The notes beneath the pieces are model-generated. The model did not search any database and was not told the origin of the DNA. It saw nothing but the letters and a program-made list of their open reading frames with translations. Both the position numbers and the translations under genes were made by a program. Of a stretch of 11,474 nt of DNA, positions 1,632 through 10,411 are shown in pieces. Location: the UHGV virus genome UHGV-0044052; one strand, written 5' to 3'. This stretch comes from a virus. Every line of letters begins with the position of its first letter. Position 1 is the stretch's first letter.

Positions 1632-2174
1632 TTACTCGCCTTTCTTCTGTAGCAACTTTTCCGGTACGTTTCCGGTTGTTTCTTTCAAGTAATCAGCCAG
1701 TATCTGTGGGAGGTTGTCGGCAACTCTGGCACTGGCATTACAGGCTTTAACCACTTCCCTTTTAAGCCTATCCAGCATGGCGGGGGTAATCTGTGGGAAG
1801 CTCCTTTGCATAGTAAGCGGGAGGCTGTCCATGATTGATGAAATCTGACTCGCCAGCTTTGAAAGCGCGTACAGGCAAAACTCAGTATCAATCACGTCAC
1901 CGCGATCGCGCTCGTTTTTAAGTTCCTGCGCCTCCGCCTGTGCTGTCAGTAATCTGATCCTGACTCGTAAGAGTTCATCATCATCAATATCGCCTTTGTC
2001 GTTTGTAAGCTGGCTAATTGCATTGTTAACCCTATTGTCTATCACGCTGGCAACATCGTAAAACGCCTCACGGCCTTTACGTTCAACGGGAGTCACTCCC
2101 CACTTGTCGAACGCTGTCGCACTTACACGGCAGCTTTTCGCCATGTTTTTTTTGTTCATCAGGTGCGATTTCAT
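1632..2174 (-). CDS. Terminase small subunit, lambda Nu1 family
   Basis: 180-aa product. N-terminus MNKKNMAKSCRVSATAFDKWGVTPV resembles the Nu1 winged-HTH start (VNKKQLADIFGASIRTIQNWQEQGMPV). Central LLTAQAEAQELKNERDRGDVIDTEFCLYALSKLASQISSIMDSLPLTMQRSFP aligns with Nu1 LTRAQADAQELKNARDSAEVVETAFCTFVLSRIAGEIASILDGLPLSVQRRFP. Similar length to Nu1 (181 aa). Comparison is from memory, not a search. Confidence 0.85.
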   Translation of the reverse strand: MKSHLMNKKNMAKSCRVSATAFDKWGVTPVERKGREAFYDVASVIDNRVNNAISQLTNDKGDIDDDELLRVRIRLLTAQAEAQELKNERDRGDVIDTEFCLYALSKLASQISSIMDSLPLTMQRSFPQITPAMLDRLKREVVKACNASARVADNLPQILADYLKETTGNVPEKLLQKKGE

Positions 2175-2350
2175 TAATACACCAACTTAATTACTGCTTC
2201 AGGTTGGTGTATTGTTTGCATCTTTCCCTTTTCATTCATAAAGATAGAGCAAACAACAAAACCACCACCACCCCCCTGAAAAAGCTCATAAATAGCGAAA
2301 AACCGCGAGGTCGCCGCCCCGTAACGGGCCATAATTCCAGGAAGGACCCG
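2175..2350 (-). other. Second cos site (cos B), inverted relative to cos A, directly upstream of the TerS gene
   Basis: Minus strand reads cgggtccttcctggaattatggcccgttacg | GGGCGGCGACCT | cgcggtttttcgctatttatgagc. The cosN complement aggtcgccgccc is at 2308-2319. It forms a ~54-bp near-perfect inverted repeat with 1409-1462 (one indel). The cosB-equivalent region differs from cos A and contains a 9-bp-stem hairpin (tacaccaac / gttggtgta) just before the TerS start. Confidence 0.75.
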
Positions 2351-2376
2351 CAAAAAAGCCGGATTTCTCCGGCCTT
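2350..2376 (-). terminator. Rho-independent terminator after the 137-aa ORF
   Basis: Hairpin GCCGGA-tttc-TCCGGC (2358-2373) followed on the minus strand by a T-run (plus-strand aaaaaa at 2352-2357). Confidence 0.6.
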
Positions 2377-2379
2377 GTC

Positions 2380-2793
2380 TCAGATGGTTTTCAGTATGCG
2401 ATCGATGTCGCCGTCATCGCCTGGGTTTCTGCCATCGTATGCCATGCCAGCTGATACGGTTTGTGGGCTGTGCATGTCCATAAAGTTTTCAAAGGCTGCG
2501 GTAAGCTCTGGTGCAACCTTCGGGCGTTCCTGCTCTATGGTCATGTTCAGGATGTTTTTAGCCGTATCAACATCGATACAAGGCACGTTTGCCATTGCAC
2601 GCAACAGCGGCTGATAGTCTTTATGCTCATGAAGCGCCATAATCGCATCAGCGCGCGGCTTGTCCTGCTCTTCCAGTTTGTTGAGTTGATATACGGCCTC
2701 GTAGGTTGATAAACCTCTGTCAGCCATTGCCCGCGCTTCGGCTTTAAATTTACTCGCCAGCGGTAGCGCCATGATGCTTTCATTCGTTGCCAT
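2380..2793 (-). CDS. Hypothetical protein (137 aa) in the head module
   Basis: ORF with a strong SD (GGGGGA) 4-5 nt upstream of the ATG at 2793, immediately downstream of the decoration gene. No recognisable family. Confidence 0.6.
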   Translation of the reverse strand: MATNESIMALPLASKFKAEARAMADRGLSTYEAVYQLNKLEEQDKPRADAIMALHEHKDYQPLLRAMANVPCIDVDTAKNILNMTIEQERPKVAPELTAAFENFMDMHSPQTVSAGMAYDGRNPGDDGDIDRILKTI

Positions 2794-2805
2794 CGTTCCC
2801 CCTGC

Positions 2806-3093
2806 TTATCGGGCCAGCGGCTGAACGGATACGCCAGAACCCGCAAAGGCGGCGCATTTTTTCGCATCGGTGTCGACGCTCTCAGGCCAGTTAACGGCGG
2901 CAATATTGAATATCCCCGTCTTGTAACACTGTGCTGATTTCTGCTTTGACGTGTCCACGAGGTACGAAGTCAGATAAACAGCCTTGCCAGATTCCTGACC
3001 ATCCCACGGCTTAAACTCGCCATTGTCCGCCAGCATCAGCGGCAAAATGTACCAGCGTCGTGGATACCTGCTGACTGCCTGCAAATAACTCAA
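2806..3093 (-). CDS. Head decoration protein, lambda gpD-like (start uncertain)
   Basis: LPLMLADNGEFKPWDGQESGKAVYL...YKTGIFNIAAVNWPESVDTDAKKCAAFAGSGVSV aligns with lambda gpD [27 protein letters not shown]...[35 protein letters not shown]. The ORF as drawn starts at a TTG. The only SD-preceded ATG nearby (3109) is in another frame. Confidence 0.7.
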   Translation of the reverse strand: MSYLQAVSRYPRRWYILPLMLADNGEFKPWDGQESGKAVYLTSYLVDTSKQKSAQCYKTGIFNIAAVNWPESVDTDAKKCAAFAGSGVSVQPLAR

Positions 3094-3120
3094 TGTATGG
3101 AGTGTCCATAGAATCCCCCG

Positions 3121-4176
3121 TTAAGCAATTTTGACGGTAACAAATTTGCGAATATCTGCCGGAACCGGCTGCGGTGCGCTGTGCGTCTGCACGTACTCAA
3201 TCGCCGGATCGCCGTCCTCAATCCAGTTTTTCGGGTAGTACATGTTTTGCGTTGCGCCTGTTCTTACCGCTTCCTGATCCATAATCGCACCATAGGCCAC
3301 CAGCCCTTTGTTGTTGGTGTTGCCCAGGACCAGCAAATCAGGATCAAGGAAATATTTTTCTGTGCCGTCGCTGTCAGTGTATTTGCCGGAATAGACGATA
3401 AGGGCAATATCGCCCAGATAGCCTTTAAAGCTCACCACTTCGCCCAGGTTTTTACAGGCCAGCTCTGCGGCGGACTCTGAACCACGGGAAAGATCGTACA
3501 GCTCACGGAATTTTTTAAAGCTGCGTAACGTTCGCCATACCTCAACGCCCATAATCATGACGTTTGCGGGGCAACCAGCCTGATCGGCGTATAGTTCGAT
3601 ATCATAGATTGGATCGTGGGTTTCTTTGTCCTGCTCTGACCATTTTTTCCCGTCGGCCTGCTCTATGATGTTTTTTTCCGGTATCTTCCAGTCGATTTCA
3701 TAGCGCTCTATGCCTTCGCCCTCAATGATGTTTTTTCCGGTCGTTACCGCATTTACCGCCAGCCATTCCACGCGCGCTTTTATGGCGTTTATCTGGCGGC
3801 GCATATTGCCAGTAATCAGGCGCATACGGCGATAGGTAGGGTCGTTAAGCTGTGCCGGATCTTCTCCAGCCATGCGCATGATGGTTTTCGTTGGATCGAT
3901 TTCGTGCTTTGGCTTCATGTAGCCAGGTTTAATCGTGCTGGTTTCGTACCCTTTATCGCGCTGAACCTGGCTACCCACCATAGGCGAACAAAACGCCGAC
4001 ATGGTGACTTCTTCAATGTCCAGGGTATCCAGCATGATGTTTTGCGTGTTGAATGTCGCCACGTTCGGGAAAAACAGCGCGGTAAACAGCGGACTAAATT
4101 TAAATTCCGCAATATCCTCGCGATTCAGGTACGCGAAAAGCTGGTGTGTGTTAAGTGCCATTGCTTTGACTGCCAT
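3121..4176 (-). CDS. Major capsid protein, lambda gpE-like (HK97 fold)
   Basis: 351-aa product with conserved blocks shared with lambda gpE along its length: EFKFSPLFTALFF / KFKFDPLFLRLFF, KPGYMKPKHEIDP / TPGYVKPKHEVNP, DPTYRRMRLI / DPAYRRRRII, GDIALIVYSGKY / GDVAIVVYSGQY, YYPKNWIEDGDPA / RYPKNWVTTGDPA, SAP near the C-terminus. Confidence 0.9.
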   Translation of the reverse strand: MAVKAMALNTHQLFAYLNREDIAEFKFSPLFTALFFPNVATFNTQNIMLDTLDIEEVTMSAFCSPMVGSQVQRDKGYETSTIKPGYMKPKHEIDPTKTIMRMAGEDPAQLNDPTYRRMRLITGNMRRQINAIKARVEWLAVNAVTTGKNIIEGEGIERYEIDWKIPEKNIIEQADGKKWSEQDKETHDPIYDIELYADQAGCPANVMIMGVEVWRTLRSFKKFRELYDLSRGSESAAELACKNLGEVVSFKGYLGDIALIVYSGKYTDSDGTEKYFLDPDLLVLGNTNNKGLVAYGAIMDQEAVRTGATQNMYYPKNWIEDGDPAIEYVQTHSAPQPVPADIRKFVTVKIA

Positions 4177-8509: not shown

Positions 8510-8729
8510 GTACCCCTCCGCATTTTTTTTCGTTAGAAATAAGCGTTCTTCTTTCCTGTTCATCGCTCAGGAATACGCAGACCTCACCGCTAAGGCGTTT
8601 AAGTAAGCCGATGATTGCCCCTGATTCGCTGTCGGTCATCATGCCAGGGTAATCCTCTGCCAGTGCGCAAATAACTTCGATTTGGTGGGCGCGTTCTGCT
8701 GCCTGTTGTAGTGTGATTTCCTGGCTCAT
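8499..8729 (-). CDS. Hypothetical small acidic protein (76 aa), early operon gene 2
   Basis: ATG at 8729 overlaps the stop of gene 1 (ATGA). Non-repetitive composition. Confidence 0.5.
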   Translation of the reverse strand: MSQEITLQQAAERAHQIEVICALAEDYPGMMTDSESGAIIGLLKRLSGEVCVFLSDEQERRTLISNEKKCGGVHVQ

Positions 8730-8926
8730 AAGCCTACCCCCTGACGAATACGGGCAGCAAATACCATCACGCAGCCAGCCGGAGATTGCTGACGCGCTTC
8801 CTGTTCGCTGGTGGCCTCGATGGTAATCACGCGCGGTTGTGCCGTGCTCAGGGCGATAAAACGCCAGATGTATTTATTCAGGTTGTACGAGTCCCGCCCT
8901 TGCGGGTGTATGGTATAATTTCTCAT
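8726..8926 (-). CDS. Hypothetical protein (66 aa), first gene of the early operon
   Basis: ATG at 8926 with SD GAGG ~6 nt upstream. Corresponds to the 3' end of the 355-aa ORF in the track, whose 5' part is low-complexity and antisense to the RHH gene and is not used. Confidence 0.45.
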   Translation of the reverse strand: MRNYTIHPQGRDSYNLNKYIWRFIALSTAQPRVITIEATSEQEARQQSPAGCVMVFAARIRQGVGL

Positions 8927-9122
8927 AGCTGCCTCGATAATCTTGCTATCGTTGGTGGTTAGAAGCCCCGTTACTGCTCCTACAGTGCGGGGTTTCGTCG
9001 TTTCTGCACCTTGCATTAACAAGGTGTAAGTAACTTTATTTATAGGTGGCTTACATGTCAATGCTTTTATGTAAGACTTTTTATGTGTATATTGTCTTAC
9101 ACTTTCATTGAGAGGATTACAG
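8927..9122. promoter_or_regulatory. Divergent promoter/operator region (genetic switch)
   Basis: Four TGTAAG / CTTACA half-sites arranged as two inverted pairs (9025-9030 / 9050-9055 and 9070-9075 / 9096-9101; the second is GTAAGAC-N16-GTCTTAC). Palindrome CCTTG-cattaa-CAAGG at 9009-9024. Candidate leftward promoter TTGACA (plus 9057-9062) - 18 bp - TAAAGT (plus 9033-9038). Candidate rightward -10 TATATT at 9088-9093. Confidence 0.6.
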
Positions 9123-9428
9123 ATGGCTACAGGTTCAAAAAACGCAAAATCACAATCACTGACAGCTCGGATCCCGCATGATGTTATTGAAGGCATGGAA
9201 TCCGTAAAACTGGACGGTGAAAGCAACGCCGGATTCATAGTAACCGCCATGCGCGGTGAAATCGCCCGCCGCCAGGCAGAAGGAAGCGGAGAAAACCCCC
9301 TGATTTCTTCGCACGATGCACTGGCGCAGGTGGAAAAACTCGGAATCAAAGCCGCCGAGGAGATCGGGCAGCTCGTCACTGTCGCACGTGAAGAACTCCA
9401 GCGCCGCAAGACCAAAGAACCAGAGTAA
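9123..9428 (+). CDS. Ribbon-helix-helix (CopG/Arc-like) DNA-binding protein, putative island repressor
   Basis: ATG at 9123 with SD GAGAGGA. N-terminal SLTARIPHDVIEGMESVKLDGESNAGFIVTAMRGEIARR fits a beta-strand / helix / helix RHH pattern. Divergent from the early operon across the operator region. Confidence 0.6.
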   Translation: MATGSKNAKSQSLTARIPHDVIEGMESVKLDGESNAGFIVTAMRGEIARRQAEGSGENPLISSHDALAQVEKLGIKAAEEIGQLVTVAREELQRRKTKEPE

Positions 9429-9485
9429 TCACCATCAGCGCCGTGGTGTAAGGTATTACGGCGCATTGCTATGCAGGACAACACA

Positions 9486-9659
9486 ATGACCGATAAAGAA
9501 TTGACCAAAACATTATCACCGGCACGGAAAAGACGGCGCAGAAAGATAGAGCATGAATCAGAAAGATTCGCGCCATGTGCTTTTGCCCTTGAGCAATTCC
9601 TTAAAGAATACAGGGAAAAGCGCTCATTGCAGGTATGGCAACGAACTGAACCAGACTGA
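9486..9659 (+). CDS. Hypothetical small basic protein (58 aa)
   Basis: ATG at 9486 with AGGA 8 nt upstream. Contains an RKRRRRK basic patch. Alternative start at 9471 as in the ORF track. Confidence 0.4.
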   Translation: MTDKELTKTLSPARKRRRRKIEHESERFAPCAFALEQFLKEYREKRSLQVWQRTEPD

Positions 9660-9753
9660 TTGCATTGCCCACCAGCCTGATAGCGGCTATCATCCCCGTG
9701 CTTATGTTTGGGATCATATACACATAAGGCGCAGCGGGTTAATTGTTCAGAAA

Positions 9754-9781
9754 GGCGGCTCCATATCGGGGCCGCTTTTTT
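9754..9781 (+). terminator. Rho-independent terminator between convergent rightward genes and alpA
   Basis: Stem GCGGC / GCCGC (9755-9759 / 9771-9775) with an ~11-nt loop, followed by tttttt (9776-9781). Confidence 0.55.
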
Positions 9782-9807
9782 CGTGTTTGTCATATCTGTG
9801 ATACCCG

Positions 9808-10014
9808 TTAAGCAGCCGTTCCGCGTGCTTCCTGTTCGCGTTCTTTCTGCCAGGCCAACACATCATCCTCATACCATCCGCGACGGCGTAAACCAACGCG
9901 AAAACCCTGCGGAAATTCTCCGGCGTTGATCATGCTTTGCAGCGTGCTGTCTGCCTTGATGTGGATAATTTTTTTTACTTCCTGGCGAAAGATAATTTTT
10001 CTGATTGCTTCCAT
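9808..10014 (-). CDS. alpA: AlpA-family transcriptional regulator / excisionase-like protein
   Basis: 68-aa product. KIIFRQEVKKIIHIKADSTLQSMINAGEFPQGFRVGLRRRGWYEDDVLAWQ matches the AlpA/Phage_AlpA HTH pattern (K..G.R.VGW.E.EV..W). Location near a P4-type integrase is typical. Confidence 0.75.
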   Translation of the reverse strand: MEAIRKIIFRQEVKKIIHIKADSTLQSMINAGEFPQGFRVGLRRRGWYEDDVLAWQKEREQEARGTAA

Positions 10015-10087
10015 CGTGATTTACCTTGTGAATCCGGTGTATTCCGGTGACAAATACGGTAAATCATCGGATATGGGTAAAAACAGT

Positions 10088-10121
10088 TCCCACCGTTTTT
10101 AAACGGTATACACCGTTTTTA
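10088..10121. promoter_or_regulatory. Palindromic operator upstream of alpA
   Basis: ACCGTTTTTAAACGGT perfect palindrome (10092-10107) plus a third CACCGTTTTTA half-site (10111-10121), within the alpA upstream region. Confidence 0.45.
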
Positions 10122-10145
10122 TATTGATGATTTGAAATGGAATTA

Positions 10146-10170
10146 TAAAAAAAGCGGCATTTCTGCCGCT
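10146..10170 (-). terminator. Rho-independent terminator after the int-proximal small ORF
   Basis: Hairpin AGCGGCA-tttc-TGCCGCT (10153-10170) followed on the minus strand by a 7-nt T-run (plus-strand aaaaaaa at 10146-10152). Confidence 0.6.
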
Positions 10171-10180
10171 TCCAGGATTG

Positions 10181-10411
10181 TTACCGCCATTTTTTGGGCC
10201 TGCCTCCGATCTTCATAGATGCCGGACGTACGACCTTATCAATACTTACCGCCAGATTTCTGGAAGCGCCACGGGATACCAGAAAATCTACTACCTGTTT
10301 TTTTGATGGGGCCGTCGTTCTGTCCTCCGGATCGTAGGTTGACCAAAATTCATGCTGAACCATCAGGGCCAGTTGCAGCCCGTCGCAATTGCATCTGATA
10401 TTTTTTTGCAT
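10181..10411 (-). CDS. Hypothetical protein (76 aa from the first ATG) between int and alpA
   Basis: ORF with its own downstream terminator. The ORF track starts 7 codons earlier at a GTG (10432). No clear SD. No recognisable family. Confidence 0.45.
   Translation of the reverse strand: MQKNIRCNCDGLQLALMVQHEFWSTYDPEDRTTAPSKKQVVDFLVSRGASRNLAVSIDKVVRPASMKIGGRPKKWR

Follow-up and report, generated by a model that had tools for sequence, protein, structure and literature searches.

A conserved array of four half-sites upstream of alpA is a candidate operator in a Gram-negative phage-inducible chromosomal island

The UHGV virus genome UHGV-0044052, an 11,474-nucleotide stretch of DNA (here called the window) that is 100% identical to Escherichia coli Nissle 1917, carries upstream of alpA, the master regulatory gene of a phage-satellite island, an array of four short half-sites, H1 to H4, which spans 44 bp (10078–10121). 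The array lies between an intrinsic terminator and the ribosome-binding site of alpA, and it is conserved across strains as a phylogenetic footprint. Judged from sequence, it is a well-supported candidate for the alpA operator. An earlier note on the window had described a perfect 16-bp palindrome with an extra half-site in the alpA promoter region and proposed it as an operator through which AlpA itself, or a factor of the helper phage or host, acts. That observation is real, although it was mis-described in detail.

The plus strand of the array reads TAAAAACAGT TCC CACCGTTTTTA AACGGT ATA CACCGTTTTTA. The 16-mer ACCGTTTTTAAACGGT was correctly located at 10092–10107, but it is not perfect; its reverse complement disagrees with it at both central positions, which makes it an inverted repeat of two 7-bp arms around a TT spacer (7+2+7, ACCGTTT-TT-AAACGGT). 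The extra half-site was recovered, as CACCGTTTTTA occurs in two exact plus-strand copies in the window, at 10091–10101 and 10111–10121, with an offset of 20 bp. The description in terms of three half-sites was incomplete, for a fourth, TAAAAACAGT at 10078–10087, had been overlooked. The orientations of H1 to H4 alternate and generate two-fold symmetry, in which the site first noticed is both the junction and the centre. Two 18-bp dyads are formed, AAACGGT-ATAC-ACCGTTT at 10101–10118 without mismatches and AAACAGT-TCCC-ACCGTTT at 10081–10098 with one mismatch, and repeat finding returned a 20-nt direct repeat of 80% identity (10081–10100 and 10101–10120). The array may be read as two tandem dyads or as one palindrome of four half-sites, and the 16-mer is central either way. 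As alpA (9808–10014) runs on the minus strand, the array is indeed upstream of the gene, 64–107 bp from the start codon and directly after the terminator of the int-orf76 unit. Within the window, the ACCGTTT/AAACGGT motif is confined to the array, which in an unbiased test was also the sole locus with three or more copies of a 7-mer or its complement in 45 bp. However, about 10% of random windows of the same composition, simulated with a first-order Markov model, hold one comparable 7-mer cluster. The single sequence is therefore suggestive, and the case rests on conservation.

Conservation was examined in nine strains of 78–100% identity, found by a motif-blind BLAST of alpA with its upstream sequence. 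Invariant columns account for 31 of 41 in the array (10081–10121) and 26 of 30 in a second block closer to the gene (10031–10060), compared with 13/64 in the upstream terminator flank, 9/20 in the spacer between array and second block and 25/68 at alpA third-codon positions, 63% of which vary. H2, H3 and H4 are invariant in all nine strains. Within the array, variation falls in the 4-nt spacers, at a single central base and in the H1 core. The spacers differ in sequence (GTAT, TATA, GACT, GGGT, GAGT; GGGA, GAGT, GACT, GGGT) at constant length, and the core of H1, which reads CGGT, CAGT, TGGT, CTGT, CGAT or CGTT among strains, is the least constrained. Of 24 unique sequences, 14 have AAACAGT as H1, which mirrors H4 exactly, so that in these the whole 40 bp forms one global palindrome. 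At the central junction most strains have 2 bp, and one strain has 1 bp. A sister clade, comprising strains C5, MFDS1022581 and A19, has a perfect 16-mer, ACCGTTTTAAAACGGT, as its central site; in strain 2013C-3033 the site is 15 bp long. Both clades have the terminator 5' of the array at the same place, with differing sequences, and the 15-bp gap from H4 to the second block is likewise fixed in length and unrelated in sequence between them.

The alpA region is carried by 374 of 5,426 complete E. coli genomes, including Nissle 1917, ATCC 25922, O157, O26 and O111, and many strains are more than 99% identical. The array was found solely beside this alpA clade. A scan of IMG/VR with a three-half-site pattern, which is biased by that pattern and was used for variants, returned 50 loci, all of the same satellite family. 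In a 61-locus collection anchored on TTTACCGTATTT, an element of the second block, the invariance of TTTACCGTATTT is by construction, since it served as the anchor. Strain RM13745 (L008 2420–2520) retains the operator array and second block intact, although its alpA is interrupted about nine codons in.

A further clue comes from the att arm, which lies beyond the window, in the stretch from the start of int to the tRNA gene (L001 14079–14182). It holds five phased CACCGGAWW boxes on the alpA strand, three of them adjoining the att core (CACCGGATAT, CACCGGAAAG and CACCGGATAA) and two a little further in (CACCGAACAT and CACCGGATTT). The boxes sit between the att core and copies of the repeat TTAGTTATACG, four in L001 14003–14060 and two at the other island end (L001 2775–2805), which are likely integrase arm sites. 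Because the five boxes occupy one att arm, with the core on one side and the arm sites on the other, they are likely to be excisionase sites. A weight matrix trained on these five boxes alone was scanned over 24.7 kb (49,344 positions) and ranked three sites in 10030–10074 at 8, 9 and 11. Ranks 8 and 11 are the tandem boxes of the second block (10030–10049), and rank 9 is CATCGGATAT (10065–10074, plus strand), an att-arm-like box in the spacer of the Nissle clade. The 10-bp box of the CACCGGAATA type occurs in two copies in the window and in three in some strains (L003 and L009 were compared). Altogether, the interval 10030–10121 contains eight (C/t)AyyG boxes; the spacing is exactly 10 bp in the proximal pair, and like-oriented half-sites of the dyads are 20 bp apart, so that several short boxes are in phase with free orientation, as in a Cox-box-like array. 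As the array lies about 1.9 kb from the att core, it would be a site of transcriptional control, outside the intasome. A contig scan for AlpA relatives gave four loci, of which one, from E. albertii (AlpA 63% identical), was useful: it has CATCGTTTTTA at the equivalent att-arm position, identical to CACCGTTTTTA at 10 of 11 positions, and its repeats upstream of alpA differ. The coordinates of the features are collected in Table 1.

Table 1. Features of the alpA control region and of the adjoining genes (positions in the window).
Feature	Position	Strand	Remark
alpA	9808–10014	-	68 aa, excisionase-type winged-helix regulator
Inverted repeat TGATTTACC (10066–10058) / GGTAAATCA (10025–10017)	10017–10066	-	As RNA, pairs across the Shine-Dalgarno AAGG
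Tandem 10-bp boxes CACCGGAATA and CACCGGATTC	10030–10049	-	Same motif as the att-arm repeats beside int
Invariant TTTACCGTATTT	10052–10063	-	Another ACCGT box; invariant in nine strains
Spacer between H4 and second block	10064–10078	-	15 bp, fixed length, variable sequence
H4, proximal outer half-site	10078–10087	+	TAAAAACAGT, degenerate; alpA sense ACTGTTTTTA
H3, inner half-site, left arm of 16-mer	10091–10101	+	CACCGTTTTTA
H2, inner half-site, right arm of 16-mer	10101–10107	+	AAACGGT; alpA sense ACCGTTT
H1, distal outer half-site	10111–10121	+	CACCGTTTTTA; alpA sense TAAAAACGGTG
Intrinsic terminator of int-orf76 unit	10150–10173	-	10-pair stem, 5 GC pairs, then T run
orf76, conserved orphan between int and array	10181–10411	-	Low-probability candidate binder

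The array and the second block (10030–10063) may together form the alpA control region to which AlpA binds as a positive autoregulator, a reading that we favour tentatively and with somewhat less than even confidence. The core promoter of alpA would be weak, and boxes with the core (C/t)ACyG and an A/T-rich tail would be the binding sites of a small winged-helix protein of the excisionase type, most likely AlpA. One AlpA recognition code would then be used at two places, the att arm beside int and the gene's own promoter. AlpA would act as a recombination directionality factor at the former and as an autoregulator at the latter, giving positive feedback as in the islands EcCICFT073 and EcCIMP1; the helper phage would trigger the first pulse of alpA, which the feedback would amplify. 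The architecture, the conservation and the proximal box common to the att arm are features of the DNA itself, from which we infer that a protein would bind, that AlpA is a candidate binder, that binding would activate and that a promoter would lie nearby.

Several published observations bear on this scheme. AlpA activates its own promoter in EcCICFT073, where helper phages induce alpA without SOS by a phage inducer that was not identified in that study, and in reporter data on related islands basal alpA expression is low when the island is absent and is activated by the helper (PMC6092414). In EcCIMP1, AlpA boosts its own promoter; without AlpA the helper still induces, below the full level (PMC11773190). 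With AlpA autoactivation and SOS-independent helper induction both published, an operator for AlpA or a helper factor, as the earlier note put it, is the right frame. The same literature, on related islands, speaks against the SOS dependence of alpA induction that had also been entertained. Likewise, the suggestion that the ribbon-helix-helix (RHH) protein YlcI/YnfO of the window might bind the array finds no tie to it; the intergenic region of that protein has a different repeat, TGTAAG/CTTACA. Relatives of AlpA work as recombination directionality factors and bind to att regions (PMC8844411). The winged-helix excisionase P2 Cox recognises at least six phased boxes, in varying orientation, at attP, at the switch promoter of its own gene and in front of PLL, the late promoter of the satellite P4 (PMC3936717).

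The putative assignment of AlpA to this class draws on several searches. AlpA matches PHROG 66 (E = 5.5e-7) and PHROG 2790 (E = 3e-6), both described as excisionase and transcriptional regulator. Its best match in the PDB is 8c3t, the GIsul2 excisionase of the 'AlpA family' (E = 0.084), to which Foldseek also aligns the AlpA model (probability 0.91, TM 0.63–0.73, E = 0.22, for a model of pLDDT 66). Further structural neighbours of this low-confidence model are Pukovnik Xis, MerR N-domains and BldC. No match was found in NCBIfam, and a word-based protein search for distant relatives returned solely E. coli and Shigella proteins of at least 79% identity. A perfect DnaA-box consensus, TTATCCACA, lies inside alpA (9960–9968, minus strand) and is probably fortuitous, because it is not conserved in the C5 clade.

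A number of points weigh against AlpA as the binder. Against PF05930 (Phage_AlpA), the protein scores 17.6 bits, below the cut-off of 21, albeit in a full-length alignment with E = 0.0035, and its structural model is of low confidence (pLDDT 66). The half-sites of the dyads contain the same CACCG core but receive modest scores from the att-arm matrix, ranking at about 147 for CACCGTTTTT, 711 for H2 and 3,701 for H4 of the 49,344 positions, so the dyads could belong to a protein other than the binder of CACCGGAWW. Moreover, two clades with AlpA proteins about 24% different, helix residues included, and with different att-arm boxes have one and the same array. Monomeric excisionase-type proteins usually bind direct repeats; dyad symmetry, conserved arms and free spacers are more typical of a dimeric repressor or activator. 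Lastly, neither a sigma-70 scan nor manual inspection found a minus-strand promoter between the terminator and alpA. With no convincing sigma-70 promoter placed, the activation geometry is a guess.

The leader of alpA adds to the difficulty of placing the promoter. The invariant TACCGT (10061–10056) could serve as a minimal -10 element, in which case the dyad centres would lie near -41 and -61, the classical positions of activators. However, the inverted repeat that pairs across the Shine-Dalgarno AAGG (10027–10024) implies a transcript start further upstream, which conflicts with TACCGT as the -10 element. The minimum free energy (MFE) fold of the region as RNA is -35.6 kcal/mol (z = -4.0), and in the 9-bp leader helix (10066–10058/10025–10017) one compensatory change, A-U to U-A, separates the two clades. 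The helix would point to translational control of alpA and to a transcript start upstream of 10066.

Which protein else could recognise the dyads is the first question that these objections raise. A different dimeric regulator, either an inducer of the helper (its excisionase or a Cro/CII-like protein) or a host factor, might occupy the dyads and leave AlpA the CACCGGAWW boxes alone; we regard this as rather unlikely. The array has the dyads, the conserved arms and the unconstrained spacers of fixed length of a dimer operator, it resembles the att-arm boxes weakly, and it is unchanged between clades in which AlpA and the att-arm boxes have diverged. Further, in related islands the helper induces alpA without SOS and partly without AlpA (PMC6092414, PMC11773190), and P2 Cox, which comes from the helper, acts on boxes that precede P4 PLL to activate this promoter (PMC3936717). 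By the same analogy, the four half-sites might be the landing pad of a helper-phage inducer, perhaps the excisionase of the helper, although we consider this more specific proposal a little less likely still. If it were true, satellites would detect the excision of the helper by means of a common excisionase box code, used also at the att arm and in AlpA feedback. However, no cognate dimeric DNA-binding protein was identified among the families and folds compared with orf76 or in a dyad scan of phage lambda, where forms of the dyad with up to three mismatches occur as often as expected from shuffled sequence; lambda may not be the helper of this island. When the control region (116 bp) was searched by BLAST in 50,697 phage genomes, all hits had an E of 1 or more, which is a weak negative, since a lone 18-bp dyad is invisible to BLAST. 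A single-dyad scan of IMG/VR gave, among the matches listed, more than 100 single sites at chance level outside the satellite family and no enterobacterial phage with multiple copies. That the array occurs solely beside this alpA clade also argues against a separate regulator. To our knowledge, the consensus sites of LexA, CRP, PurR, Cra, NarL/NarP (7-2-7), IHF, Fur and PhoP offer no convincing match.

A repressor encoded by the island itself would be another solution, with orf76 as the candidate that silences alpA until the helper relieves repression, like Stl in Gram-positive islands. The gene is present in every array-bearing clade (67–96% identity, E. coli only), its AlphaFold model is a confident small three-helix bundle (pLDDT 80) with the basic tail GGRPKKWR, and a promoter just upstream of H1 would put the dyads at or after the transcription start, where repressors bind. 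We nevertheless think this improbable: orf76 has no match in Pfam, PHROG or NCBIfam and no significant structural neighbour (best E = 3), related islands combine low basal alpA expression in the absence of the island with helper activation, and EcCICFT073 has no orf76 equivalent. A supposedly 'AlpA-like' relative of orf76, P0036, was rejected, being a deletion fusion of orf76 and alpA. About as doubtful is an explanation by nucleic acid structure, be it a hairpin or attenuator in the alpA leader, weak antisense terminators on the plus strand, or curved, phased A-tracts for silencing of the H-NS type. The stable RNA fold would agree with it, as would the plus-strand AAACGGTATACACCGTTT followed by a T run, which was flagged as terminator-like, the promoter-like TTTAAA-16-TATATT flagged on the same strand, the perfect pairing of H1 AAACAGT with H4 in a nested hairpin (14/24 unique sequences), and the control of alpA by H-NS and Hha in CP4-57 and CP4So. 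Yet the helices of the array show no two-sided compensatory change, the H1 variants CTGT, CGAT and CGTT break pairing uncompensated, and H2 and H3 are invariant in sequence, beyond mere complementarity. The stems are short and A/U-rich, with nothing obvious to terminate on the plus strand, and Rfam gave no family at threshold (best 21.7 bits, against a gathering score of 55). That best sub-threshold match, to the Salmonella sRNA STnc50/STnc40 at 10095–10180 (plus strand, E = 0.53), begins inside the array and adjoins the promoter-like site at 10098–10125; it is probably due to chance. Finally, the repeats could have arisen by chance in A/T-rich intergenic DNA and been kept by recent divergence of the island. 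The simulated windows and the many near-identical strains leave some room for this, but between clades the flank and spacer are essentially unrelated and alpA third-codon positions vary widely while the array is kept, with changes mainly in the spacers and the H1 core, and chance is accordingly a most improbable account.

Binding by AlpA, the reading preferred here, has its nearest parallel in the Cox boxes of P2 at Pc, attP and P4 PLL (PMC3936717). As there, a short box is repeated in multiple copies at a phase of about 10 bp and in varying orientation, and boxes, here those of the proximal CACCGGAWW type, occur both at the att region and at a switch promoter. The systems differ in the box itself, which is (C/t)ACyG with an A/T tail here and TTAAAG/CNCA in P2, and in symmetry: the distal sites here are strict dyads with overall two-fold symmetry, whereas the sites of P2 Cox are a run of boxes. 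Further, the likely binder here would be the satellite's own protein, while at P4 PLL it is the Cox protein of the helper. P4 PLL drives vis, the alpA homologue of P4. The best hit of the phage-genome BLAST, TAAAAACAGTGTATTGCGTTTAAAAACAGCGGG, is in Fels-2, a P2-like phage, within its attP arm (L066 41–73); it matches the array at 28 of 33 positions, including the 20-bp repeat spacing, and with an E-value of 1 is treated as chance.

EcCICFT073 and EcCIMP1 are islands of the same kind and gene order, with promoters activated by AlpA and by helper phages; the cis elements of these promoters were not mapped in the respective studies (PMC6092414, PMC11773190). The int-alpA module of EcCICFT073 is unrelated but follows the same logic, with ACAAC repeats at a 10-bp phase in the att arm, six between int and alpA and two just before the alpA ribosome-binding site. 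The motif differs, direct ACAAC repeats there and ACCGT dyads here, as do the att site and the length of AlpA (62 aa compared with 68 aa). In strain 2013C-3033 (L004 1900–2290), an insertion of about 400 bp between terminator and array carries TTTTGAGACAACAT four times plus two inverted copies, and the ACAAC core of TTTTGAGACAACAT resembles the repeats upstream of alpA in EcCICFT073. At the level of the protein, lambda Xis with its X1-X1.5-X2 sites, TorI, Vis, VefA and SEN1998 appear to belong to the same fold class as AlpA here, and the excisionase sites of those systems are tandem, phased and situated between att core and integrase arm sites, like the boxes of the att arm. Operators of the Cro/CI type and sites of class I/II activators are similar in their conserved arms and free spacer, and the two operators 20 bp apart would lie on the same helix face; in contrast, no dimeric helix-turn-helix regulator is assigned here and the hypothetical promoter conflicts with the leader helix. 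Pseudomonas aeruginosa AlpA was rejected as a relative, since it shares only the name and is unrelated in size and fold; it is a 21Q-like antiterminator of eight helices that binds GGGACG between -35 and -10 (PMC9371919).

The island itself is about 11.6 kb long and lies between a yejO remnant and tRNA-Pro, beside yejM; the window covers nearly all of it. On the minus strand, the order is int, orf76, the intrinsic terminator, the array and alpA, with tRNA-Pro preceding int. Beyond alpA follow a convergent ylcI/ynfO unit, an Icd-like gene, small open reading frames (ORFs), a D5-type primase (domains D5_N, DUF5906 and Pox_D5) and ssb. The late genes are limited to a lambda-E-type capsid, a decoration protein and a Nu1-type small terminase; the island, as examined at 1632–4176 and in comparison with L069 13463–15497, encodes no portal, protease or large terminase, and EcCICFT073 carries the same capsid and decoration genes. 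The integrase at one end by the att site, the co-oriented alpA nearby, the island's own primase/replicase module, a size in the range of about 10–15 kb and the absence of tail and lysis genes identify the island, as far as sequence goes, as a Gram-negative phage-inducible chromosomal island (PICI) and a mosaic sibling of EcCICFT073. The two share near-identical primase/replication and capsid genes and three identical small hypothetical proteins of the early/replication region (WP_000076671.1, WP_001372127.1 and WP_001204077.1), whereas the int-alpA module and the att site differ; the swap between them is limited to the regulatory int-alpA module. O157:H7 has another late module joined to the same int-orf76-alpA module (99% identity).

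The divergent region between ylcI/ynfO (plus strand) and the Icd-like gene (minus strand), 8930–9120, has a four-fold TGTAAG/CTTACA repeat, no ACCGT boxes and a sigma-70 promoter matching at 10 of 12 positions (9061–9033, minus strand), and may be a second, separate switch of the island. A 355-aa open frame on the minus strand (8726–9793) runs antisense through ylcI; RefSeq annotates this interval as an Icd-like pseudogene and a 66-aa Icd-like gene, and other strains have Icd-like proteins of 155–187 aa.

An autoregulated, excisionase-type regulator with phased boxes at both att site and promoter is no new principle, being known from P2 Cox. Apl of phage 186 and Vis of P4 are further examples of such autoregulation. 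In Gram-negative PICIs, the helper must switch alpA on and AlpA feeds back, and the literature consulted defines neither the phage inducer nor any cis-element. The array (10078–10121) and the block at 10030–10063 are precise, conserved targets for this step, and the att arm is an independent clue to the recognition code. Collectively, they give a defined starting point for work on how Gram-negative PICIs are induced.

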